Source: Isurus oxyrinchus (Eukaryota). From it: a stretch of 64,000 nucleotides of DNA. The stretch lies in NCBI GenBank assembly GCA_026770705.1, contig JANJGN010000011.1, positions 111,414,001 through 111,478,000 of the forward strand, in the 5' to 3' direction. The position numbers were made by a program, and so were the translations under genes. The notes beneath the pieces are model-generated. The model searched no databases. It worked only from the letters and a program-made list of their open reading frames with translations, and was not told the DNA's origin. Below, piece after piece: positions 1,548-44,825 of the stretch (positions are counted from its first letter, which is position 1; every line of letters begins with the position of its first letter).

Positions 1548-2712
1548 AAATCAGATTCGGTGCTGTACCTCGCCCAGTGATTGTGAGTATCTAAGTTTGT
1601 TAAAATAGAAGAAGATATCCTCATCCAAAATGCCACAGTTTGGCAGAACTTATCCCTTTAAGCCAGCCACACACAATTGATCTCAATATATGAAATGTCT
1701 TGCCTTCTTCTTTCAAGCAAAAGAAGTCAAAGAGGAGGTAAAGAGGAGAGCGATTCTCCTGAGTATTTGCTGGAGCAAGACCTACAATTTAATTAGAAGC
1801 TTGACAGCCCCCAGATTTGAAGACTTTCAGTGTATTAGCAGACCTTATTAAGGGACATTTTCAACCCAAACCCTCAGTCACAATGCAGAGGTTCAGGTTC
1901 AATTCATGGAATAGAGCCCGAGGGATGACAATTGCTAACTACGTGGTAAAATTAAAACAACTAACAAATATTGTGATTTTGGTGAAACTCTGAATAACAT
2001 GCTCAGAGATCGTTTAGTAAGTAATATGCAGGAAGACACTATTCAGTAAAGATTGCTGGCTGAAGTGAATCTTGATTTTAAGAAAGCATTAGAAATAGCA
2101 CTGGTGATGGAAAGCACCGTAATGGATTCACAAGCAATTCAAGGAGCACAAGAGGTGGGAACAGTTAGTCGAAAGTGGCGCAAAAAGCTGGGACTCTGCT
2201 GCAAAGTGGGAAAGATAAAAATGAGAGGAAACAGCTTAGCAACTAAATTGAAAAATAACTTGCATGGACATAGAAACAATCAGTCTTCTAGCGATTGGCA
2301 ATTTAAAAAAGTAGAATGTTACTTTTCTCACAAAAGTAGACACATAATGAGACTGTGCAAAGCAAGATTTAAACAGGCCTCCAAACAACAAACAAAGTCC
2401 AATGAAGTCTATGGTGTAGAAGACCCAGAAACAACCAATCCTAACATTTATTCATTATTCAACATGAAAGTTGGGAAGACAGAGCCAATGTTTGTTACAG
2501 TGCAAGTGAACGGGAAACCATTAAAAATGGAAGTAGACATAGGTGCTTCGACAACTGTAATAGGAGAACACATTTTCAGATATTGAAACAAAGTGGATTA
2601 ACACAAATTTGGAATAAACATCTGCCAATTTGAAAGTGTACATAGGCGAAGAAATCCAAGTAAAAGGTATCACCAGAGCAAAGGTTAATTTTAGACAACA
2701 ATTGACGCAGCT

Positions 2713-4943
2713 TTTTAAAAATTTATTCACGAGATGTAGGCTTCGCTGGCTGGGCCAGTATGTACTGCCCATTCCTAGTTGCCCTTGACAATGTGGTGGT
2801 GCGCTGCCTTCTTGAACAGCTATAGTCCATGTGGTGTAGGCACACCCACAGTGCTATTAGGAAGGGAGTTCCAGGATTTTGACCCAGCGACAATGAAGGA
2901 ACGGTGATATAATTCCAAGTCAGGATGTTGAGTGACTCGGCGGGGAACTTCCAGCTGGTAGTGTTTTCATCTACCTGTTGTTCTTGTCCTTCTAGATGGT
3001 AGTGCTCATGGGTTTGGAACGAGCTGTCGAAGGAGCCTTGGTGAATTCCTGCAGCACATCTTGTAGATGGTACACACTGCAGCTATTGAGCATCGGTGGT
3101 GAAGGGAGGGAATGTTTGTGGATGTGGTGCCAATCAAGCGGGTTCCTTTGTCCTGGATGGTGTCAAGCTTCTTGTTGTGAGAGTTGCACTCATCCAGGCA
3201 AGTGGGGAGCATTCCATCACACTCCTGACTTGTGCCTTGTAGATGGTGGACAAGCTTTGGGAGCCATGGTGTGAGCTACTCATTGCAGGATTCCCAGCCA
3301 CTGTCCTCACAGACCTCTGTAGCCACAGTATTTATATGGCTAACCCAGTTCGGTTTCTGCTCAATGGTAACCCCCAGGATGTTGATAGCAGGGTATTCAG
3401 TGACGCAATGGTTAGATTCTCTCTTGTTGGAGATGGTCATAGTCTGGCATTGGTGTGGAACGAATGTTACTTGCCGCTTGTCAGCCCAAGCCTGGATATT
3501 GTCCAGGTCTTGCTACATTTGGACACTGCTTCAGTATCTGAGGAGTCGTGAATGGTGCTGAACATTGTGCAATCATCAGCAAACGTCCCCACTTCTGACC
3601 TTATGATGGAAGGAAGATCATTGATGAAGCAGCTGAAGATGGTTGGGCCCAGGACCCTACCCTGAGGAATTCCTGCAGTGATGTCCTGGAGCTGAGATGA
3701 CTGACCTCCAACAACCACAGCCATCTTCCTTTGTGCTAGGTATGATTCCAACCAGTGGAGAGTTTTCCCCTGATTCCCATTGACTCCAGTTTTGCTCAGG
3801 CTTCTTGATGCCACATTCGGTCAAGTATGGCCTTGATGTCAAGGGCAGTCACTCTCACCTCACCTCGGGAGTTCAGCTCTTTTGTCCATGTTTGAACCAA
3901 GGCTGTTATGAGGTCAGGAGTTGACTGGCCCTGGCTGAACCCAAAATGGGCAACAGTCAGCAGGTTATTGCTAAGCAAGTGCTGCTTGATCACTGTTGTT
4001 TACCTCTTCCATTACTTTACTGTTGATCGGGAGTAAACTAATGGGGCGGTAATTAGCTGGGTTGGATTTGTCCTGTTTTTTGAGTACAGGACGTATCTGG
4101 TCAATTTTCCACACAGCCGGGTGGATGTCAGTGTTGTAGCTGTACTGAAGTAGCTTGGCTAGAGCTGCAGCAAGATCTGGAGCACAAGTCTTCCATGCAA
4201 TTGCTGGAATATTGCAGGGCCCATAGGCTTTGCAGGATCCATTGCCTTCAGCCATTTATTGATATCACATGGAGTGAATTGAATTGGCTGGAGACGGGCA
4301 TCTGCGATGCTGGGGACCTCCGGAGGAGACCGAGATGGATCATCTAATCGGCACTTCAGGCTGAAGATTGTAGCAAATGTTTCAACCTTATATTTTGCGC
4401 TGATGTGCTGGGCTTCCTCATCATTGAGACTGGGGATATTTGTGGAGACTTCTCCTCCAGTGAGTTGCTTAATTGTCCGCCACCATTCATGGCTGGATGT
4501 GGCAGGACTGCAGAGCTTCGATCAGATCCATTAGTTGTGGGATCACTTATCTCTGTCTATCACTTGCTGCTTTTGCTGTTTTTCACACAAATAGTCTTGT
4601 GTTATAGCTTCACCAGATTGACACCTCATGTTTAGGTATGCCTGGTGCTGCTCCTGGCATGCCCTCCTGCATTCTTCATCGAACCAGGGTTGATCCCCTG
4701 GCTTGATGGTAATGGTAGAGTGGGGGATATGCCTGGCCATGAGGTTAAAGATTATGCTTGAGCACAATTCTGCTGCTGCTGATGGATACCCAGTCTTGAT
4801 TTGCTAGATCTGTTTGAAATCTATCCCATTTAGCAAGGCGATAGTGCCACACAACATGATGGAGGGTATCCTCAATGTGAAGGCGGGACCTCGTCTCCAC
4901 AATAACTGTTCAGTGGTCACTCCTACCATTAGTGTCATGGACT
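2713..4943 (-). mobile_element. 5'-truncated CR1/L2-group LINE ('family B') inserted in the Gypsy protease region
   Basis: Minus-strand ORF pieces KQDKSNPANYRPISLL, ALDIKAILDRMWH, GIPQGRVLGP, FADD, SLHHR, FKKAAHHH, with the A-rich tail at ~2713. The Gypsy frame (QL|PVMVVEG) resumes at ~4944. Confidence 0.9.
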
Positions 4944-6900
4944 ACCAGTGATGGTGGTAGAAGGTGAAGGGCTAAGCCTTCCAGGTGTTGATTGTTTGAA
5001 GGAGATTAAATTAAACTAGCCTGAAGTCTTCCAGTTGTGAGCAGGTGGACTACCAGAGCTGCTAAAAAAAATGACACTGTTGTCAAGGATGAACTGGGAA
5101 AAATCCAAGGCCTACAGGCCAAAACTTACATGGATCCAGAAGCAACCCCTCGCTTCTTGAAAGCAAGCCATACGCCCTGAGAGAGAAGGTTGACACTGAG
5201 CTGAACTGGCTAGGAGGCTGGGTGTCATAAAAGCGGCTCAGTTCTCAGAGTGGGCAGCACCCATAGCCCCTGCCCTTAAACCACACCAGACCATCCGGAT
5301 CTGTGTGGACTATAACCTAATGGTCAGCAGAGCCTCTAAACTGCTCATGTACCTATTCCCAAGATTGAAGACCTATATGCCAAACTAGCAGGAGGGACAA
5401 CATATACAAAGCTTGAAATGATTCATGCAAGTCAGCAACTGGAGCTGGATGACACCTCCCGGGAATTCAAAGCCATAAACACCCACAAAGGGCTATACCA
5501 ATATAACCCCTGCCCTTCGATGTTTCCTCAGCCTGTGCCATTTTTCAGTGGACAATGGAGAGCTTACTACTGGAACTACCTCAGGTTGTGGCCTATCTGG
5601 ATGATGTACTGATAGCTGGATTCACAGAAAAGAGACACTTGGCTAACCTAGGGGAAGTCCTGAAATGATTTTTAGAAGCAGGAGTGCACCTAAAGACAGA
5701 AAATTGTATTTTTCAAGCAAATAAAGTCATTTATTTGGGCCACTGGGTAGATGCCTAAGGGTTACACACAGTTGAAGAGAAGGTTAAAGCAGTAGGAGAG
5801 GCACCCAAGAACACTTCTGAACTTAAATCATTCTTAGGGATGATAAATTATTATGGACAATTTCTACTAAATTTATCCACCTTTCTAGCCCCTCTGCATT
5901 CACTGCTAACAAAAAACCAATGTTGGATTTGGGAGACACCCCAAAAAGAATCCTTTATGAAAATAAAACAACTATTACACCCTTCAAATTTGTTACTGCA
6001 CTATGACCAGGCGAAGGAATTGGTGCTAACATGAGGTGCTTACCTCTATGGAATGGGAGCGGTACTATCTTACAAAATGGACGACAGCACAAAGAGGTTA
6101 CTAGGCTAATTATCCATGACACAACACAGCTCAAAACAGATATTCTCATGTCGAGAAGGAAGGTCTGTCGATTATTTTTGGTGTAAAAAGATTCCTCCAA
6201 TATATGCATGGGTGACATTTCATGATAATGTCAGACCACGAACTGCTTTGGGTTTGCTTAACGAGGAAAAGGCTATATCTCCCATAGCCCCTGCAAGAAT
6301 ACAAAGAAGAGCCCCAATTTTAGCAGCATATGAATACACCATTGTACAGAGGCCAGGGATTTACATAGCAAATGCCGATGCCCTAAGTTACCTTCCTTTG
6401 CAAGAGAATGTGCCAGACAGAAAAGAAACTGGACGAATCGTGATCCAGTCCTGTCTCGAGTGAGAGGTTAAGTGTAACATGGTTGGTCCCAAGAACCAAT
6501 CTCTGATGAATTGAAGCCGTCTTTCAACCAAAGACACAGGATTAGCAGTCAGGATGGTATTCTATTATGGGGTGCATGGGTAGTAGTTCCTGTACAAGGA
6601 AGGGAACCACTTTTAGTAGAGTTACACAGTGCCCATCTAGGGATCTTTCAAATGAAGATGATAGTGCAGTTGTCTTTGGTAGCTGGGGGACGGACAATGA
6701 TATTGAAAATGTGGTAAAACACTGTTCAATGTCAACAGCTGCAAAAGTTGCCGTGGCAGCCCCATTGCCCCCATGGGGGTGGCCTGGTAGACCCTGGGTG
6801 CGATTTGCACATTGACTATGTTGGCCCTTTCCTTGGAACCATGTTTATACTGATTATAGATGTTCATTCCAAGTGGTTAGACAGTTATGAGGTAAAGTCC

Positions 6901-9900
6901 TAACATCAGTAGTGGGGAAAATGCTAGATTCTATTATAAAAGAGGTGGTAAGAGAGCACTTGGAAATGGGATTAGACAAAGTCAGCATGGGCTTATGAAG
7001 GGGAAATCATGCTTAACTAATTTACTGGGAGAACCAGTGGATGTGGTGTATTTGGATTTCAAGAAGGCTTTTGATAAGGTCACACATAAGAGGCTAGTGT
7101 GCAAAATTAAAGCACATGGGATCGGGGGTAATATATTGGCATGGATTGAGAAAGGATATACTTGCCATAGAGGGAACACAGCAAAGATTCACTAGGCTGA
7201 TAGAGGGAATGGCAGGACTGTCGTATGAGGAGAGATTGGTTCTACTGGGCCCGTATTCACTAGAGTTTAGAAGAATGAGAGGGGATCTGATTGAAATGTA
7301 TAAAATTCTAACAGGGCCAGACAGACTAGATGTAGGGAGGATATTTCCCCTGGTGGGGGAGTCTAGAATCAAGGCAGAGGGAGCACAGCTGCATTAAGTT
7401 TCAAGGGAGTAAGGCAAGGTTGGATGGCCTCTACTTTAATACTTTAACGGATGAGTTAAGGGTGAGGATTGACACGTGGAATTGTGATATCGTAGCCATC
7501 ACTGAGACGTTGTTGAGGGAGGGGCAGGGTTGGCAGCTCAACATTCCAGGATATAGAATCCTCAGGAGAGACAGGGGAGGGGATAAAAGAGGAGGAGGCA
7601 TTGCATTATTAGTTAAGGAGTCAGTTACTGCAGTAAGAAGAGAAGATATCTTGGAGGGGGCATCGAATGAAGCTTTGTGAGTAGAGCTTAGGAATTTTAA
7701 AAAAGGGGCAGCCATATTGTTAGGTATTTATTATAGACCCCCAGATAGTCAGCGGGAAATTGAGCAGCAAATATGTGCCCAATTTGCGGAGGTGTGTAAA
7801 AACAATAACAATAGGGTAATTATATTAGGTGATTTCAACTTTCCCAACATTAATTGGGATAGACATAGTATTAAGGGCTTGGATGGAGTAGATTCCTTGA
7901 AATGTGTACAGGAGAACTTTTTAGGTCAATATGTAGAGGGTCCAACAAGGGACAGCGCAGTGCTGGACCTAATTCTGGGGAATGAAGCCGAACAGGTGGC
8001 TGAGGTGGTGGTGGGCGAACATTTTAGTGATAGTGACCACAACATGGTACAATTTAAGTTTGTTATGGACAAAGAAATAGACAAGTTGCAAAAAAATGTT
8101 TTGGATTGTTGGGGAGTGGATTTTAGTAAAATAAGGCAAGATCTGGCCCAGGTAGACTGGGAACAGCTACTTGTGGGGAAATCTACAGAGGAGCAGTGGG
8201 GGGCGTTCAAAAAGGAAATGGGGAGGGTACAGATGCAACATGTTCCCTCTAGGGTGATAGGAAGGAGTAACAAGCCCAAAGAACCATGGATGATCAGAGA
8301 TATTCAGGTTACGATGAGAAGGAAAAGAGGGGCTTTTAACAGGTACAAGGGAAGCAAATCAGCGGAGGCATTAGTGGAGTACAGAAAGTGCAGGGTGGAT
8401 CTTCCGAAAGCAATTAGGAGAGCAAAGAGGGGATATGAGAAAGCTGTGGCTGGTAAAAATAGGGAAAATCCCAAGATATTCTATAAGTATATCAATGGCA
8501 AGAGGATAACCAGGGAAAGAGTAGGGCCTATAACGGACCAAGGGGGCAATCTATGGGTGGAGCCAGAGGACATCGCTAGCGTGTTGAATGAATACTTCAC
8601 ATCCGTCTTCACCCAAGAGAATGAGGATGAAGTATTGAACTCGGGTAGAGAGACTGCGAGATTCTTAAGCAAATTGATATAGAGAGTGACAAGGTATTGG
8701 AAGAATTGGCAGGCTTAAAAGTGGACAAATCTCCAGGACCGAGTCATTAGTGTCCCAGACTGCTGAGGGAGGCAAGGGAGGAGATCGCAGGGACTTTGAC
8801 CCAAATTTTTAATTCCTCTCTGGCCATGGGGGAGGTGCCAGATGACTGGAGAACAGCTAATGTGGTTCCGCTATTTAAGAAGGGTTGTAGAGAGAAGCCA
8901 GGGAACAACAGGCCAGTGAATCTCACATCAGTGGTAGGGAAACTATTGGAGAAAATTCTGAAGGAGAGAATCTATCTCCACTTGGAGAGGCAAGGTTTGA
9001 TCAGTGATAGTCAGCATGGCTTTGTCAGAGGGAGGTCATGCCTAACAAATTTGAATGAATTTTTTGAGTAGGTGACCAGGTGTGTATATGAGGGTAATGC
9101 AGTTGATGTAGTTTATATGGATTTCAGCAGAGCCTTTGACAAGTTCCCACATGGGAGACTTATAAAGAAGGCAAATGCACATGGAATACAGGGTCATTTG
9201 ATAAGGTAGATTCAAAATTGGCTTAGTTGTAGGAGGCAGAGGGTGATGACAGGAGGATGCTTTAGTGACTGGAAGCCAATGTCCAGTGGCGTACCACAGG
9301 GATCTGCGCTCAGTCCCCTATTATTTGTCATTTATGTAAACAACATAGGTGACTATGTGGGGGGTAGGAATAGTAAGTTTGCAGATGACACAAAGATTGG
9401 CCAGGTGGTTAATAGTGAGGTTGAGTGTCTTGGGCTACAGGAAGATATAGACGGGATGGTCAAATGGGCAGATAAGTGGCAGATGGAATTTAACCCTGAA
9501 AAGTGTGAGCTGATGCCCTTTGGAAGGAGTAATTTGACAAGGAAATATTCAATTAACGACATGACACTAAGAAGTTCTGAGGAACAAAGGGACCTTGGCG
9601 TGTCCATAGATCTCTGAAGGCAGAGGGGCATGTTAGTGGGGTGGTGAAAAAGGAATATGGGACACTTGCCTTTATCAATCGAGGCATAGATTACAAAAAT
9701 AGGGAGGTCATGTTGGAGTTGTATAGAACCTTGGTGAGGCCACAGCTGGAGTATTGTGTGCAGTTCTGGTCATCACATTATAGCAAGGATGTGATTGCAC
9801 TGGAGAGGGTGTAGAGGTGATTCACCAGGATGTTGCCTGTAATTAAACATTTGATTTATGAAGAGAAGTTAGATAGACTTGGGTTGTTTTTGCTGGAGCA

Positions 9901-13886: not shown

Positions 13887-14350
13887 GCGGGGTTGCAGTG
13901 GCATAGTGGCATTGCCACTGGACTAGTAATCCAGAGACCCAGGGACCTGGGTTCGAATCCCATGACAGCAGATGGTAGAATTTGAATTCAATCAATAAAA
14001 ATCTGGAATTAAAAGTCTAAAGATGACTATGAAACCAATTGTCGTAAAAACTCATCTGGCTCACTAATGTCCTTTAAGGGAGGAAATCTGCAGTCCTTAT
14101 GTGGTCTGGCCCACATGTGACTCTAGATCCACAGCAATGTAGTTGACTCAAATGCCCTTTAAAATGGCCTATCAAGCCACTCAGTTGTATCAAGCTGCTG
14201 GAAGGTCAATAAGGATAGTGCACCTACACCACATGGATTGTAGCAGTTCAAGAAGGCAGCTCACCACCACCTTCTCAAGGGCAATTAGGGATAGGCAATA
14301 CATGTTGGCCTAGTCAGCAATGCCCATTTCCCATGAGGAATAAAAAAAAA
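13887..14350 (+). mobile_element. tRNA-derived SINE with LINE family B tail
   Basis: Box A TGGCATAGTGG (13899), box B GGTTCGAATCC (13950), body shared with 18332-18702, 3' ~125 nt matching the LINE B end, poly-A. Confidence 0.85.
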
Positions 14351-14556
14351 TTCTGTACCTCACTTCTCTTCATAAAAGAAAGTTCTTAAAATGAAAGGAC
14401 ATTACTGCAATTCAATCCTGATTTCCAAATGAAATATTGTTTTTCTTATGGAGGGAACAATTTATCTCTAGTACTATAAAAAATTGTGCCAAAACATATT
14501 TAGCATTTTCAAAACTCCACACCAGATTGATTGTAAACCACATGTAGAGAGAAGCT

Positions 14557-14852
14557 TGTGGTCATCTGAGATGCAATACATCTTTAAGAGAATGTGAGCA
14601 GATTGACCATGTAACTGTATTACCCAATTGCTGTGTAGCGTGGGCTACAATGTTAAACAGTAGTTTAGAATAAGGTCTGGTTGAAGAAGCACACATTGTG
14701 TTACTGCTCTGTTACTTGTGTACATAAACAGCATGTGCTTCAGTTTGTATTTGTCCCTGCGTCTGCAGTATATTGTTTGCCAATGCACCCACCAGTAGAT
14801 AGGCGTGTAACTGTGTTCGCGAGCAAAGCCACCCGACAGAAGGAACATAACA
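14557..14852 (+). repeat. 5' LTR of Gypsy element 2
   Basis: Direct repeat of 17253-17548; about 46/296 mismatches by hand count, no indels. Confidence 0.95.
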
Positions 14853-14992
14853 ACTGGCAACAGGACAAAACATGACCAGTCAATGACATCAAAGAAAGCA
14901 GCAAAGATTCCACTGAAGTGAATCAGCCGTACCTTGCAGACCGATTGTATATACAACCCTCACCATAGTCATCGAAGGTATCTCCCTCCAGT

Positions 14993-17179
14993 AATGCTAC
15001 AGTTTGGCTGTATCAAACCGTTTGATCAGACCACCGATGACTGCTCACATTATATTGAACAATAAATTTGAATGTACATTGAACCATATATTGAATATAT
15101 AGTTATTGAACATATTGAATATATATTGAACTATATATTGAATGTATGTTCTTATTTTAGGCCATCGATATATCGTGGGAGGAAACAGGGCGGGCGGGTG
15201 TTCCCCTTATTGACATGTGGCAGTAAAATATACTGCCTAGTTTGTAGTCTAACGGCACCCAACGCCCCAGATTCCAAGAGCTTTGATGAGTTGGTAATTC
15301 TTGTGAAAAGCCACTTTCAGCTGAAATCCTCAGTAACAACACAGCTTTTAAAATTTAATTTGAGGTGTCAGGCTCCTGGAGAGACAGTCGCTTACTATGT
15401 AGCAGCCTTAAAACAACTGACAGAACGCTGTGAGTTCAGGACGTCGATTAACGACATGTTAAGAGACTGATTAGTGTGTGGGATTAATGAAGACGCCATT
15501 CAAAAAAGGTTTTGTCAGAAACGAATTTAGACTTCAGCAAGGCACTGGAGTTGGTGCTCACAATGGAGAGCGTGTTCAGGGATTCAGAAGAAATCAAGGG
15601 AGCACAAAATGGGAGGAAAGCATTGATTAGAAATGGCATGGACGCGCAGGACTCAGCGGAAAGGCAGGAAACAGCCACTATTAACAGACCAGCAAAAAGC
15701 AATGGTTTAACAGAGAAAACCCACGTTCATAATGATAGACATGGAATCAGACAGCCTGCAAATGAAAGACAATTTAAACGAATCGAGTGTTTCTACTGCT
15801 ATCGCAATGGGCACATTATGCAATATTGTAAAGACAGATTGAGACAAAATTTTAAACAAAAAGTTAGAATTCGTGAAATCCACATAATAGAGGAACCAGA
15901 AGAAACAGAGTCAGATATTTACTCACTACACAACTTAAAAATGGTTAAAACAGGGCCAATCTACATAGCAGTGCAAGTCAATGGAAAACCCATCCGCTGG
16001 ATACAGGGGCACCCACGATAGTTCTCGGGCAATATACATTTAAATATCTAAATGGAGGAGACCATCCATTAAATCTGGAACATTCAGATGCTAAACTAAA
16101 GACGTACACTGGTAAGAGGTATATGCAAAGTTCCAGTACAGTATGAAAATCAGTCTGTTAATCTACCCCTAATAGTGATAGCAAGCAGAGGACTGAGTCT
16201 CCTCGGAAGAAACTGGTTAAGAGAGATTAATCTTGAGAGACTACTGAGATCTCAATTAGAAAGAGGAAATGTTACTATTTGGAAAAAGGAGCATGTAAAA
16301 ACTCAACCAAAGGTACTCGTAGAGGTGATGCCTCAGGACAGAGTTCGAGTTGAAGGCAGTAGCCTTCAAAAAGATAAAGAAAACCTGCTGAAGGACTTTC
16401 GGCTATTTCAAGATTCCCTCAAATCCCAATTTATACCACTAAAAAGATATGAGGAAGAACAGAAAGAATTCAACATATCCTGGAACGAGATGAAGAGTAA
16501 ATTAGCCGAGAAAATGCAACAGTGCTTAATTCCCAAGGGAACTAACAAATATAAATAAGAAATGGAAGCGTTGAACAATCAGCTATGTAAAAACCAAGAA
16601 GCTTTAAAGATAGAGACCCCTGAGTTTTCGAAGGAGCTGATAGTTGAGGAAATTCTGGGAGACTCAATCACTGAGTTTACTCAAGTTGAGCTTACACCTG
16701 AACCTAATCTGGCCAATAGGGAAATTGAAAAGAAGGCTGAGATCAAAGTCAGCGCTGCCAAGAAGAAGACCCATCAAAAGAAGACACCTAAGAAGAAAAA
16801 GAAGAATCTTTTTACACAACAGGAAGCTGATCATACAATGTTAAATTTAGCTTTGCCCACATCTTGATTTTGAGAACTTTCCTGACAGTTGAACTTGGAG
16901 GGGAGGGGCAGCAGGAGTGCATGCGATGGGACCCAAAAGATGGTGAAAGCATTCCTGCTGGAGTCTACACCACACAAAGAAGGAACTTTCCTTAGTTTGG
17001 AAGCACCTGTAGGATCTGTTGTACCTGAGAGGGTCGAAGAGACAAAATTACAGGTTCCTACTGGAGAGCCTAGTGGACAGATAACTCCTGAGAGGGAGGC
17101 CTCGGATAAGCCATCCGAAGTCAGAGAACTACAACGTTCAACATAGTTGAAGAAGCCTTCAGCGAGACTGAATTTGTAA
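14993..17179 (+). pseudogene. gag-protease-coiled coil-Lys-rich-integrase tail fusion ORF, decayed
   Basis: ORFs 16175-16558, 16562-16867 and 16889-17146 share one frame, running from protease LLGRNWL to the typical Gypsy IN C-terminus (QRST*LKKPSARLNL*). Confidence 0.8.
15051..15143 (+). repeat. Degenerate tandem repeat (TATATTGAA)n inside gag
   Basis: About 8 imperfect copies of tatattgaa. Confidence 0.8.
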
Positions 17180-17252
17180 ATAGTTTATTTATGTAAACAG
17201 TTGATATATTGTAAAAATTGTAAAATTGTACTTTCGAGTAAAGGGGGAGGGA

Positions 17253-17548
17253 TGTGGTCATCTGAGGTGCAATATACCTTTAAAAGAATGTGGGCCGATT
17301 GGCCATTTGACTGTATTACCCAATTGCTGTGTAGCGCAAGTTACAATGTTAATCAGTAGTTTAGAATAGTGTCTGGTTGGAGAAGCACACATTGTGTTAC
17401 TGTTCTATTACTTGTGTAAATAACCAGCATGTGCTTCATCTTATATTGGTCTCTGTGTCTGTGGTATATCCTTTGCCAACTCACCCTCAGGTAGATAGTC
17501 GTGCAAATGTGTTCACAAACAAAGCAACCTGGCAGAAGGAACATAGCA
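17253..17548 (+). repeat. 3' LTR of Gypsy element 2
   Basis: Preceded by the PPT and followed by TSD AAGCT (17549-17553). Confidence 0.95.
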
Positions 17549-17659
17549 AAGCTCAATTTATAAATTGATCTAGAGGATAGCTCTTTCAACTTAATTTAAT
17601 TAATATTAGGACAACAGTACCCAGGACAAACTAACTGCTTGATTAACATGTCATCCATG

Positions 17660-27607: not shown

Positions 27608-28837
27608 ATGGGAGCTGAACTCCCCAGTGGAGACACCTCCCCTGAGAAGGAAGGGGGGCCTGGGAGGGGGAGGAGGCCAGGAATGTACATTCAGCCTCCA
27701 GGGGAGCCACCTTTGGGAGCTCAGGCATGGTTGCAAGGGGTGCAGGGCCAAGAGGTAGTCCAAGGCGGAAGGAGCTGCAGACGACGGCACTATCCTGCTG
27801 CCAGGGTATACAGGCGGCGAAGCAGTTACCTCAATATGTCTGAGGTGCAGTGCCGAAGGAGGCTCCATCTCTCAAGGGAGACAGTCAACTATATCTGTCA
27901 GATGATAGGGCCTGAGATCTCCGTGAACTGTGTGGGTGGACACCCCATACCAGTGGCTCTAAAGGTCACAGCTGCCCTCAACGTCTATGCCTCTGGCTCC
28001 TTCCAGGGGTCGGTGGGTGATCTTTGTAGTGTTTCCCAATCAGCTGTCCACACATATGTCAAGCAGGTCACAGACGCTCTGTTCAGATGGGCATTCACCT
28101 TCATCCTCTACCATTCGGACCAGGCAAGCGAGATACAGCGAGCCAGAGGCTTCGCAGCCATTGCTGGCTTTCCCCATGTCCAGGGTGCAATAGACTGCAC
28201 ACATGTGGCTGTCAAAGCGCTAGCAGGTGAGCCCGGCGCCTTTGTCAACAGGAAGGGCTTCCACTCTATGAACGTGCAGATAGTGTGTGATCACAGGATG
28301 CTGATTCTACAAGTCTGTGCAAGGTACCCAGGCAGCTCCCACGACACCTACATTCTCAGATTACTTCCAGGTGCCGGGACTCTTCAGTGCTTCAGCCCAG
28401 CTGGATGGATGGTTGCTGGGTGACAAGGGCTATCCCCTCAGAAGGTGGCTCATGATGCCTCTCCACCATCCAAGAACAGAAGCTGAGCAGCGCTGCAATA
28501 GGAGCCACACCTCCACAAGGGTTGTGGTGGAGAGAACCATTGGCCTTCTCAAGATGACTCTCCGATGCCTGGACCACACAGGGGTGCACTCCAGTACCCC
28601 CCAGATCATGTATTGGTGATAATGGTTGCATGCTGCACTCTGCACAATCTTGTGCTGGAAAGGGGGAACGCAGTGGACGATGAAGATGTAGACGCAGTGG
28701 TTGCTGCTGCACACGATGAATCCAGCAGTGAGTCATAGGATAAACAGGGAAATGCTGAGGGGGTAGATGCTGACTTGGGCAAACTCCAGGGATGCAGAGA
28801 CACCCGGGAGGTTTTAATCCAATGAACCTTCAGCTAG
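27608..28837 (+). pseudogene. Harbinger DDE transposase (HARBI1-like family), frameshifted
   Basis: [55 protein letters not shown]; frameshifts near 28360 and 28585; AATAAA at 28942. Confidence 0.95.
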
Positions 28838-29153
28838 CACACCACATATGGACCTCCAGGACAAGCCTGGGCTGTATGCTCCATATTCAAGGCCTAAGTA
28901 CAAAATCTTCCTGGTTAGGAACATTAACTAAGGGCCTTGTTAATAAAGTTGAATATTCCACAAAACACTCATTCCATTATTGGAAACCATTCACCTTCAG
29001 AACAAAAGAGGCACCCGCAGCCATGGTGACATGTCTGAATTTAATATTGCAACCAAAGAAACTTAATGAAACAAAATGAAATAAGTGTTAAAAATCACAC
29101 CAACTCATAAAGCGGGCCAACACAAAAGCACCAGTAATAAACCTGTGATGTGC

Positions 29154-30100
29154 CTAAGGTACCTTATGTTTACATTTCCGGGTGCTACGTCTTGGTGCTG
29201 ATCCCTCCCTGGGAGTAGCGTCTGAGACAACTGCTGACTCTGGACCTTGGCAGTTGTCCTCTGGCTCTTGGAGCCAGTGCTGGGCCCACCTGGGAGGGAG
29301 CTGCCAGTTCTACAGCTGGCATCTCCCCAGTCTTTGCAGCCTTACTGGATACAACAATCACTGGCAGAGGGGCGGAGGATCTGCCGTCCTCATCTGGATC
29401 ACCCTGAAAGGAGCCGCAGAGATCACATGCAGCTGCTGTACCAACGTGAGTTTGCTTTGGACCTCCCTGCTCACCGTGGATGGATGGGCAGCAAGCTGGG
29501 AACCTTGGTGCCCAGACCATCTCCCACACTGGCACTGATCAGCATGTCATCACCCTGATTTTGACATGTCCTGGAGTTCCAGCATTGTGCCTAGGTTTCG
29601 CTCCTCCAGGTTGCTCCCAAAATGGTCTTGTGGGTCTCAGTGTACCACATTCTGCAGGGGCAGAACCCATCTGTTCACCACCCTCTCAGGGTGAACTCGG
29701 CTTAGGTAATATTTGCTGGCCTACCCAGTGAAGGGTAAATGCCTTCAATGATTCAATGCAGTCACTTCACTCCGACTTGGGGGTGGGTGGGCAGCAGGGC
29801 AAAAAGCCAACCTGCTGGGTTGTGATCAACACCAACATTGTCCTCACCCTTCCTGAGCACAACAAGTCGTTGAAGCGCTTTCAAAACTGAATCCAGGTGC
29901 GTCACACCACGTCGCAGGAGCTGGGGAGATGGGGGAGATGGGGGGGGGCCTCCTCCTCCCATCCTGGGGAACCAGCATCTCCCACCGTGCTGCCACCTCC
30001 TCAAGGAGGGCAGCAAGGCAGTCATCAGAAAAACAGGGGGCACCCTGGCCCCCCCGCCCTACCCTCTGGCCTGGCCTGCTCACCAGAAGCGCTCTGGGGA
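29154..30100 (-). pseudogene. Myb/SANT gene of element A, internally deleted
   Basis: APCFSDDCLAALLEEVAARWEMLVP, donor AGG|gtgag at 29848; exon 2 and the start of exon 3 are missing (junction 29543/29544). Confidence 0.85.
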
Positions 30101-41438: not shown

Positions 41439-43266
41439 ATGGAGACCATAGTGGGTGGATACGGCAGGCGGGAGGGCAGGTCGGTGGAGCAGCTGGCTTC
41501 ACATTTCTCATATGATTACCTTGCTGCCTTCCTGGAGGAAGTGGCAGTGAGGGGAGAAACACTTGCTTCCAAGGGCGGGAGGAGGAGGCCCCCCCACCCC
41601 CGCCTCACCAAAAAGGCCTGGGAGGAGATGGCCTTCCAGGGTCAGTAGCCACGACATGGTGAGGCACACATGGGCCCAGTGCCGGAAGCGCTTTCACGAT
41701 CTCCTGCAATCGGGAAGGGTGAGTACCGTGTGGGCATGGCGCACCGCACAATAGGTAAGAGCTGCCCATCCCCCCCATGGACCTCAGAGGTGATAGAGCA
41801 TGAGTGGCAAATGTCAATGAGGCAGGAACTGGCCAAGGGGGTGAGACCTGGCTGCTTGGACTGAGTGCCTTGTGGCTCCAGGGTCACGAATGTGCTGAGA
41901 TTCAGGTGGGGTTGGCCAGGCTGAAATGGCACTGCAGGTAGAGGGTACAATGCTCCTCTATCCTTCCAGGAGAAAACACCCCATTACAATGCAGAGAGAT
42001 CGCGGACTGGTGGGGGGCCCCATACCTAATCCTCAGTTGATACAAGCAGGAGGCCCTGGAGCTGCAGACACACCATGCACCTCGGTCAAGTGGCCACGGT
42101 GAGGTTGGGCTGCTCAAGGGAGGTAAGGTTACAGTGCACTGAGGTAAGAATGTGGATTTTTGCAACTATTCCAGTGTAGTCTCTTTATTGATGTGAGCGT
42201 CAAACCTGGAATGCCCATTGATAATGGAAAGCCAAGGACACTATGATGCAGATCTGTCTCATCAGGGTGCCAGGCATGCAAACTGACAGATTAATGACAT
42301 GTCCTTCTTCTCCCTTTTAGGCTTACCAGCGCATTCTGAGGAGCCTGAAGGCCCACTCCTGACCTGAGGACCAGCATGCTGAGCAAACACCAGTGTCACA
42401 CCCTCTGTCAAGCAGGCACCAGCATAGATACCAGCACCTCGGTGGGCATAAGATCGGCGTCGAGCATCTTGGTGCACATTGTCAAAGGAAATTCACGCTC
42501 ACTTGAGGTGCAGGTGGAGGCAGAGAGTGCCCAGGACACTGGCAGTCAGAGAACTGCTGGAGACCAGGAAAATGCTCAATCGATGGCTAAAGATGGACGT
42601 CTGGAGTCGCCCATAAGGCAGCAGATGCTGGATGTCCAGCAGGGTGTGTGGAAGGATCTGGCAGAGATACATGAGGGTATGTGTGCCATAGAATCCATTG
42701 TGGAGTCGTCCATGTGGAACATAAGCAATGTGCTGACCCTCATGGCCGAGTGCACAGCTTCCTCCATGGAGAGAGTGGCAACTCTCATGGAGAGGCACCT
42801 CCAGAAACTCAATCAGGGAATCTTGGGAACGCGCTCGGACCTGCCAATCCTCACACCGGCAATGACCTCAGCTGGTCAGTGTCAGAGTGGAAGATTGATT
42901 GGGCACCCAGTATCTCAGCTTGGTGCCAGTCCATCAATAGTGAGCAGAGAGGTCCAGAAGGACCTCACGTTGGTGCACAAGCTGCCTGTCATCTCTGTGG
43001 GCTGCTCTGGATGATGGCAGCAGTTCCCTCGTCCCTGTCCCAGTGACTGTGGCATCTGATGATGCTGTGGTGACTGGGAGATGCCAGCCATGGCACCAGC
43101 TGCTCCCTCCCAGGCGGGGCTAGCACAGGCTCCACAATCCAGAGCCCGCCAAAGTCAACAAGGCCAACAGGACAGCAGAGTGAACAGGATGTCTCCAATG
43201 CCGGTGCCAGCGAGGGGGAAACACCTAGGCAGAGCACTCGCAAGCAAAAACTTAAAAGCACTTTAA
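41439..43266 (+). pseudogene. Three-exon Myb/SANT-like gene of element C
   Basis: Exon 1 41439-41718 (FSYDYLAAFLEEV..LTKKAWEEMA..RHTWAQCRKRFHDLLQSGR|gtgagt), exon 2 41970-42122 (cag|EKTPHYNAERSRTGGG..|gtaagg), exon 3 42321-43266 (coiled-coil-like, basic end). Disabled. Confidence 0.9.
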
Positions 43267-43600
43267 GCATAACACAGCCTGATCATGGGTGACATTTGTT
43301 TCCCCCATTTTTCTGTTTTTTTAAATGGTGTGACGTAAAACACTGGTCAATGTTGATTTCTGCTATGCTTGTCAGTCAGCAGTAAATGAGATTTTTTTTT
43401 TGCAACTGACCTCTGGATGCTTCATTTGCTCTGTTGATGCAGAATAGGCCATGATGTTATAATGGATGCATGACTCCTTAAAGTTTATTGCAATGGCACA
43501 TAGTGTGTGTTGTATGTTATTGACCAAAGAACTGGTCCTGTCATGGATCGATCATGGAGCCTGCAGCCGTGGCATGTGATGGAGGTTCTTATTTGGCTGG

Positions 43601-44825
43601 CTAGCTGAAGGAGCATTGGATAAAAGCGTCCCAGGTGTCCCTGCCTCCCTGGAGGTTGCGCAGGTCAGTGTCTATGCCTTCAATATCCTCCTGAGCATGC
43701 TCGTCTTTGGACTCACTATTGGAATCATCGTCTATTGCCTGTGCAGCTGCGTCAAGATCTTCTTCCTCCACTGCATCCCCCCTTTCCAGTGCCAGTTTGT
43801 GGAGAGTGCAGCATGCAACCACTATCAACGACACATGATCTGGGGGGTACTGGACTGTGCCCCCTGAATGGTCCAGGCATTGAAAGTGCATCTTGAGAAT
43901 ACTGATGGTTCTCTCTTCCATTGTCCTTGTGTTTGCATGGCTCCTGTTGTACCACTGCTCAGCCTCTGTTCTTGGATGGCGGAGAGGCATCATGAGCCAC
44001 CTTCTGAGGGGATAGCCCTTGTCACCCAGCAGCCACCCATCCAGCTGGGCTGGAGCACTGAGGAGCCTCAGGACTTGGGATTGTCTCAGGATGTAGGCAT
44101 CATGGGAGCTGCCTGGTTACCTTGCATAGACTTGCAAAATCTGCATCCTGTGATCACACACTATCTGCACCTTCATGGAATGGAATCCCTTCCTATTAAC
44201 AAAGGCAGTGGGCTCATCCACTGGGGCCTTGATGGCCACATGTGTACAGTCGATTGCACCCTAGATGCTGGGGAACCTAGCAATCGCTGTAAAGCCTCTG
44301 GCTCACTCTGTCTGGCCTCACTGATACATTAATGAATGAAAATCAATGGACGCCTGAAGAAAACATCTGTCATCAGCTTGACGCAACTGTGGACAGCTGA
44401 TTGGGAGACTCCACACAGATTGCCCACCAATCCTGGAAAGAGCCCGAGGCAAAGAAATTTAGGGCCCCTGTGACCTTCAGCGCCACTGACATGGGTTGTC
44501 CACCCGCACAGTCAGAACTGATCTCAGGGCTGATCCTCTGACAGATGGAGGTCACTGTCTCCCTTGAGAAATGGAGCCTCCTTCTTCATTGCACCTCAGG
44601 CATATTGAGGCAACTGCTTCGCCACCTGTAAACCCTGGCAGTAGGATAATGGCATTGTCTGTGGCCTCATCCTTCCTATTGGCCCAGCGCCCCTTGTGCC
44701 TGTACTTCTCTTCCCACAGGTTGCTCGACTGGAACTTGAATAGGGACACCTTACATCCTCCCCTTTCTGGCCTTCTCTTCCTCTTTAGAGGTGCCTCCAG
44801 CAGAGACCACAATCCCCATTTCCAT
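43601..44825 (-). pseudogene. Harbinger DDE transposase of element C, frameshifted
   Basis: [54 protein letters not shown]; AATAAA on minus at ~43484. Confidence 0.92.

Follow-up and report, generated by a model that had tools for sequence, protein, structure and literature searches.

A decayed Ty3/Gypsy element of 2,992 bp lies at positions 14557-17548 of a 64,000-nt stretch of the Isurus oxyrinchus genome (contig JANJGN010000011.1, 111,414,001 to 111,478,000, forward strand), here called the window, whose numbering is used for all window coordinates below. Behind its aspartic protease, the element lacks the reverse transcriptase-RNase H-integrase (RT-RH-IN) core of pol and instead carries coiled-coil cargo derived from the host gene UACA. 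Searches of the 4.98-Gb genome indicated that the cargo is shared by hundreds of copies in at least five subfamilies, that it was likely moved from one helper backbone to another, and that it evolved as protein-coding sequence. We conclude from these comparisons that the capture is older than the window's own subfamily and common to other backbones, a history not seen in a first-pass annotation made from the window sequence alone.

Host origin of the cargo and the family reading frame

To identify the insert, the reading frame of sister copy L020, which is naturally open, was compared by a full HMMER scan with 1.84 billion proteins. The scan returned three matches, two basking-shark uncharacterized proteins and a ray UACA (E 1.1e-10), the last a 1,404-amino-acid protein with ankyrin repeats and a coil. 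Pfam, PDB and the protein atlas had yielded nothing that identified the insert, and the longer relatives revealed by HMMER were missed by a word-indexed protein search. The host UACA exon was located on contig C25 (locus L047) as a 911-codon open stretch that shares 63% identity with the ray protein and has the next exons behind it; the part of the exon that was not captured is single-copy, with one match in the genome. The window insert aligned to the shark exon over 144/218 nt (66%; blastn E 1e-8), and the protein local score was 198, compared with 61 for the reversed sequence and 78 for the best of 300 shuffles. Moreover, older relatives of the insert aligned to the same exon at 72-88%, which identifies UACA as the donor.

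All captured pieces fall within that one exon, and the element contains coil fragments only, with neither the N-terminal ankyrin repeats nor the full coil of UACA. In five copies of the subfamily termed B below, 28-50 residues were shared with shark but not ray UACA and 8-14 showed the reverse pattern, consistent with capture within sharks. For the helical stretch that follows host position 7601, the protein atlas gave unnamed clusters only, all eight matches checked in the Isurus genome were B-type copies, and no match was found in 20 kb of the UACA locus or, in a partial look, in about 33 kb beside the CLIP1 3′ exon. Separately, a single match to the CLIP1 zinc knuckle was seen at G000:C13:35233985 and is likely the host CLIP1 3′ end. 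The first-pass annotation had suspected a transduced host coiled coil of the UACA or ankycorbin type. We conclude that the donor was UACA itself, on comparisons made with UACA and not directly with RAI14 or ANKRD24/35, and that the insert is a derived UACA fragment rather than a UACA paralog.

The remainder of the element is that of a Gypsy retrotransposon, and the long terminal repeats (LTRs), target site duplication (TSD), primer binding site (PBS), polypurine tract (PPT), gag and protease recognized earlier were all mapped (Table 1). The LTRs, both of 296 bp with TG...CA ends, are 84.5% identical to one another (Kimura two-parameter distance, 0.177). We take the PBS to be of the tRNA-Ser type. 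Gag and protease of the decayed window copy had a weak Pfam match or none (Retrotrans_gag, E 0.096), sister copy L025 matched gag-asp_proteas at E 9.5e-6, and tblastn matches to a K02A2.6-like polyprotein were found at 15195-15524 and 16118-16234. When RT-RH-IN DNA of the related RT-bearing element L167 was compared by tblastx with 15901-17260, nothing was found at E<1e-3, in agreement with the reported absence of the core, and no env family appeared in the Pfam scans, to which the env search was confined. We conclude that the element is, by sequence, a non-autonomous derivative of the Ty3/Gypsy (K02A2.6-like) group, missing the pol core that its partner L167 has.

As first reported, the frame of the window copy continues past the protease end LLGRNWL for 216 codons, to 16867, with a single stop at 16556. 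That stop is private to this copy (1/21 copies), and its proposed origin from CAA was wrong, as the source codon occurred in 0/21 copies. The extent first given to the insert, 16230-16867, held for about 16286-16680, which is UACA-derived, and failed for the rest, which is not. Likewise, the coding frame does not run to 16867 in the family; it ends near 16808, and the window copy reads through to 16867 because a private deletion at 16808 removes the family stop. The description of one stop was accurate downstream of LLGRNWL only, as gag and protease upstream are also broken, with frameshifts near 15198, 15511, 15995 and 16111 and stops at 15158 and 15468. Within gag, short repeats spanning about 80 bp (15062-15141) are likewise private to this copy. 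We conclude that the window copy is dead, its gag, protease and cargo all being broken by frameshifts and stops.

To reconstruct the family frame, 21 copies of the window's subfamily, A, were aligned; 5 of 26 candidates were dropped (four truncated or off-length, one lacking the 5′ part), and the duplicate L066 had been excluded beforehand. In the phase of the cargo, an open frame of about 600 codons ran from an ATG column at 14994 (17/20 copies) to a stop column at 16808 (15/19). A stop was the commonest codon in only two interior columns (9/20 and 8/21 copies), both of CpG type, versus dozens of such columns in each of the other two phases over the same interval. The catalytic Asp of the protease was present in 20/20 readable copies. 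Within the cargo, stops were commonest in 0, 0, 1 and 0 of 108 columns for A, D, C and B2, respectively. We conclude that the family, as judged from its copies, encoded Gag, protease (PR) and coil in one frame, which bears out at the family level the chimera first proposed for the window.

Subfamilies, copy number and helper elements

The insert is repeated throughout the genome. Of the matches of the insert DNA that were scored, 40/40 aligned at 84-100%, and all 29 other fetched loci shared the backbone of the window element at 77-82%, L002 duplicating L003. An exact 20-mer occurred 80 times in the genome (control, 0) and was present in 14/28 of the best-matching other copies; as it was found in only half of these, subfamily A should comprise at least about 160 copies. 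Each basking-shark protein, used as a query, gave 150/150 matches among those scored. Pooling the three match lists, with about eight places shared (counted by eye), yields more than 330 cargo-bearing places as a lower bound. Raw candidate counts (1,295, 12,037 and 12,477) were rejected as copy numbers, as a single-copy control gave 1,884 candidates and one match. The first-pass annotation had held open that no host gene would match significantly or that the segment was a single-copy later insertion or a normal part of autonomous relatives; the UACA match was significant, hundreds of copies were found, and 0/10 RT-bearing loci carried UACA. We conclude that the window element belongs to a multicopy, non-autonomous Gypsy family, as had been thought.

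The cargo-bearing copies form at least five subfamilies (A, B, C, D and E) that share one 450-nt in-frame deletion junction, which argues that UACA was captured once. The junction, between host positions 7048 and 7490, is present in B, C and D, and in A the alignment continues across it; the deletion measured exactly 450 nt in 16/19 B copies and has a 9-nt microhomology. Subfamily B has its own LTRs and the host pieces 6051-6276, 6364-7048 and 7490-7601; it gave no protease match, and of Gag only an N-terminal fragment was recognized, by eye. Subfamilies C, D and E carry gag-protease together with host pieces that start at about 6700, and subfamily A has the shortest and most diverged cargo. 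In A, C, D and E, the frame closes with a Lys/Arg-rich tail. A tree of the cargo rooted on the host was a ladder in the order host, B1, B2, C, D, E, A; residues identical to the host fell along it from 77/100 through 71/103 and 62/103 to 55/105, and the nucleotide identity of A to the host is about 62%.

Median LTR divergence was 0.14 in A (22 pairs from 26 loci), 0.125 in D (11/15), 0.17 in C (5/6) and 0.19 in B (7/11), compared with 0.177 for the window copy; among the pairs behind the medians are, for A, a false pair (L061) and a duplicate (L066) and, for B, one or more false pairs (L059). Both ends of the window insertion were spanned by contigs from two runs labelled as a second species, with about 1% difference, and an LTR divergence of 0.177 against that difference makes the insertion many times older than the split of that species. 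These ages are relative ones. Checked automatically, the TSDs of other copies gave a noisy result (6/11 at 4 or more of 5). A near-length protein search returned only the two basking-shark proteins.

Decayed copies also yield false gene models, as the two basking-shark "uncharacterized proteins" match at 90-96%. Copy L031 shares 90% identity with a basking-shark gene model that has two isoforms, and L080 (G000:C1:29545689) shares 96% (122/127) with basking-shark XP_078401457, which is probably the orthologous insertion, taken for a gene in annotation. The B copies L031 and L032 (G000:C3:164.84-164.88 Mb) represent a segmental duplication: 33 kb separates them, and their flanks agree at 91-93%. 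Beside a B copy, locus L054 contains an apparently intact 502-codon open frame (1605-3110), which by eye we take to resemble a Penelope-type RT plus GIY-YIG.

An RT-bearing family was found with gag-protease 74-79% identical to that of the window and LTRs 71-88% identical in 18/20 loci. Its member L167 contains PR, RT, RH and IN in that order and has its 3′ tail in common with the window element; DNA similarity between the two ends at 16183-16252 and restarts at 16947. In a gag-protease tree of 46 of 76 rows (subsampled, omitting three RT rows that were distant and a number of long branches), cargo-bearers were interleaved with RT-bearers, and subfamily A was sister to its own helper. A single clade of cargo-bearing gag-PR, grouped by presence of cargo and not by the tree, was rejected (approximately unbiased test, p 5.4e-7), and the starred branches of the tree force at least four changes. 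Behind the protease, the linker passes down the cargo line and resembles, by eye, a decayed RT start. Given a single cargo origin and an inherited linker, repeated recombination with the current helper is the simplest reading. We conclude that one helper backbone after another likely took up the cargo. In a separate observation, a window-type 3′ part is nested in the protease of a C-related RT-bearing element (L168, G000:C3:122373400-122374200), consistent with activity of subfamily A after C-type helpers.

Selection on the cargo and its possible use

To ask whether the cargo evolved as protein, fixed differences among subfamilies were set against changes confined to individual copies over 108 well-aligned cargo codons. 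On the branch to A, the nonsynonymous/synonymous counts were 19.5/27.5 for fixed changes versus 140/46 for private changes (odds ratio [OR] 0.23, p 1.5e-5), and the summed ladder gave an OR of 0.47 (p 8e-5). A positive control, gag-PR of A versus D, gave an OR of 0.39, so that selection on the cargo was about as strong as on the element's own gag-protease; frames shifted by +1 or +2 gave ORs of 0.75-1.77, none significant. Moreover, length changes shared by subfamilies were in frame in 6/6 cases (450, 102, 426, 282, 3 and 111 nt) versus 29/165 copy-level indels. The Nei-Gojobori method (NG86) alone was rejected as a test, as its neutral baseline in these copies is about 0.5. We conclude from the substitution pattern that the cargo, coding as first surmised, evolved under purifying selection.

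Several points weigh against that conclusion. The signal is carried mainly by the long branch to A; the B2-C (p 0.10) and C-D (p 0.09) steps are not significant alone, and their NG86 net values (0.38 and 0.41) are near the within-family neutral baseline of 0.41-0.58. In the third-position excess, transversions reach significance (p 0.012) and transitions do not (p 0.09), fixed amino acid changes are no more conservative than private ones (BLOSUM, p 0.74), and C and B1 are represented by seven and two copies. The count of in-frame deletions is weakened because coiled-coil repeats favour in-frame microhomology, and the cargo was reduced from about 900 nt to some 370 nt, much of it being dispensable. 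A host piece that simply hitchhiked, with a codon pattern due to mutation bias, would account for the early ladder steps and the transition-only test, but it is contradicted by the p value on the A branch without signal in shifted frames, by the near-absence of commonest-codon stops and by the in-frame shared deletions. We consider such a neutral passenger largely refuted already and very improbable.

Host sequence might otherwise act as RNA and shield the element from small-RNA silencing. This we regard as extremely unlikely, as selection acts on amino acids and UACA is not known to be a silencing gene. Pieces of nxf2, piwi and aub in Drosophila telomeric elements offer a precedent, but the identity of A to the host is below the 79-82% at which targeting disappeared in that study (PMC13534243).

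We propose a single capture in the shark lineage, in which template switching would have occurred onto co-packaged UACA RNA, a route put forward for LTR retrocopies of animals (PMC5131818). The first carrier would have been a backbone whose only Gag sequence was a fragment (subfamily B), from which a shortened cassette then moved behind gag-protease; repeated crossovers with the helper of the day would have replaced gag-protease, tail and LTRs and kept the coil. We hold this account of origin and history with high confidence. The element RNA would have made its own Gag-PR-coil, which would join helper Gag-Pol in assembly and use its RT and integrase, in the manner of the wheat Gag-Pro families (PMC9744471). 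The coil may have taken over from RT-IN as the oligomerising part, aiding activation of the protease or assembly of particles, for which there is an analogy (PMC5899837). That a stolen host rod was put to the element's own use is likely; that it was specifically a dimerising rod standing in for RT-IN at the end of the Gag-protease polyprotein is the leading reading of its function, held at about even odds.

Some observations count against parts of this proposal. Subfamily B gave no protease match, and protease activation therefore cannot have been the original use. In favour of a rod, the cargo is predicted to be helical, in a model of low overall confidence (AlphaFold pLDDT 57.5). No RT-bearing partner of subfamily B was found among the loci searched, and the placement of B before C depends on the host-rooted tree.

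The same history could also have left the coil as a benign spacer, kept only as an open, soluble extension with no early stop and a fitting RNA length, without specific binding. Stepwise shortening through shared deletions that are all in frame, amino acid changes without conservative bias and the retention of 55/105 host residues in A would fit such a spacer. Stop avoidance alone, however, would not bring nonsynonymous change down by a factor of about four on the A branch, where synonymous sites are near saturation, and the cargo outlasted several backbone swaps although cargo-free Gag-PR elements are viable in wheat (PMC9744471). We judge the spacer unlikely, though worth keeping in view. 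Alternatively, a released coil with its basic tail might bind host UACA or its partners, or take particles to the nucleus, and so aid germ-line transposition. Protein-level selection on the cargo and the Lys/Arg-rich frame end in four subfamilies would suit such an interaction, but host identity falls steadily along the ladder, unlike what tracking of a host surface would give, and we find it improbable. Returning to the coil as a working part of the element, a broader statement can be made tentatively, and with some doubt: that shark Gypsy elements repeatedly domesticate host coiled coils in place of RT-integrase and that the domain outlives its carriers by hopping between helpers under protein-level selection. 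If true, this would be the reverse of host domestication of gag.

Table 1. Mapped features of the Gypsy element in the window
Feature	Positions	Strand	Remarks
5′ TSD	14552-14556	.	AAGCT; repeat flanking element
5′ LTR	14557-14852	+	296 bp
PBS	14855-14865	+	Position and motif common to most copies having an LTR pair
gag	14994-15945	+	CCHC knuckle ~15788-15829; 3′ limit approximate; broken here; ATG column in 17/20 copies
Aspartic protease	15946-16219	+	DTG 16000-16008; ends LLGRNWL (16199-16219); frameshifted here
Linker	16220-16285	+	Likely shortened RT-start remnant (by eye); partner DNA similarity ends 16183-16252
UACA-derived piece 1	16286-16578	+	Host exon L047 up to 7048; private stop 16556; firm from ~16345, before that internally deleted and placed by eye
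UACA-derived piece 2	16579-16680	+	Host L047 7499-7600; across 450-nt in-frame deletion, 9-nt microhomology; diverged in A, assignment bridged via B, C and D
Helical extension and Lys-rich tail	16681-16810	+	Extension also in subfamily B; family frame ends ~16808
3′ pol tail	16947-17239	+	Outside family frame; 81% to RT-bearing partner L167
PPT	17240-17252	+	
3′ LTR	17253-17548	+	296 bp
3′ TSD	17549-17553	.	AAGCT; repeat flanking element

Elsewhere in the window, a second decayed Gypsy element lies at 1630-6879, with gag and RT/RH resembling a K02A2.6-like polyprotein. An ARAGORN tRNA-Thr call at 13892-13970 falls within a very high-depth repeat and is probably the tRNA-derived head of a short interspersed element, and related repeats, 72-85% alike, form a long inverted pair at 27767-29543 and 42871-44672.

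Comparison with known systems

Acutely transforming retroviruses carry gag-onc fusions, in which a host piece stands in frame in place of pol and the defective virus depends on a helper. The likeness to the shark elements is in layout only; the latter were passed on for a long time through the germ line. No UACA-carrying element was found described in the literature searched, with Repbase/Dfam and subscription journals outside the search.

Capture of genes by LTR elements is itself known. LTR-mediated retrocopies are reported in fly, mosquito, zebrafish, chicken, mouse as well as human, and resemble the shark family in having host coding sequence between pieces of an LTR element; secondary retroposition and two cases with low Ka/Ks are also described (Tan et al. 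2016, PMC5131818). The retrocopies described there are recent, whereas the shark family combines one capture with at least five subfamilies and hundreds of copies, and, unlike those retrocopies, its cargo is in frame with Gag-PR, selected between subfamilies and mounted on several helper backbones. Maize Bs1 is likewise an LTR element with a chimeric interior frame of host gene pieces, whose copies share switch points; it has 1-5 copies and three donors (PMC5131818, PMC13317346), whereas the shark family numbers hundreds of copies, has a single identified donor, retains the protease and changed backbones.

The semi-autonomous Gypsy families Sabrina and WHAM of wheat share Gag and protease without RT or integrase, high copy number and a co-evolving autonomous partner, and the available text describes no host-derived domain behind the protease such as the shark family has (PMC9744471). 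At the family level, the shark elements show the features of semi-autonomous Gag-Pro elements, an open gag-protease frame without RT/IN and an autonomous partner sharing their LTRs. The shark family differs from these systems in the scale, the in-frame fusion behind a kept protease, the selection between subfamilies and the survival of the cargo through changes of helper. Known LTR captures are mostly recent or low-copy; here a host domain was kept coding through at least five subfamilies, giving a many-copy natural series on which two questions can be put: of what use a captured host domain is to a selfish element, and for what reason Gag-PR is retained by elements without pol.
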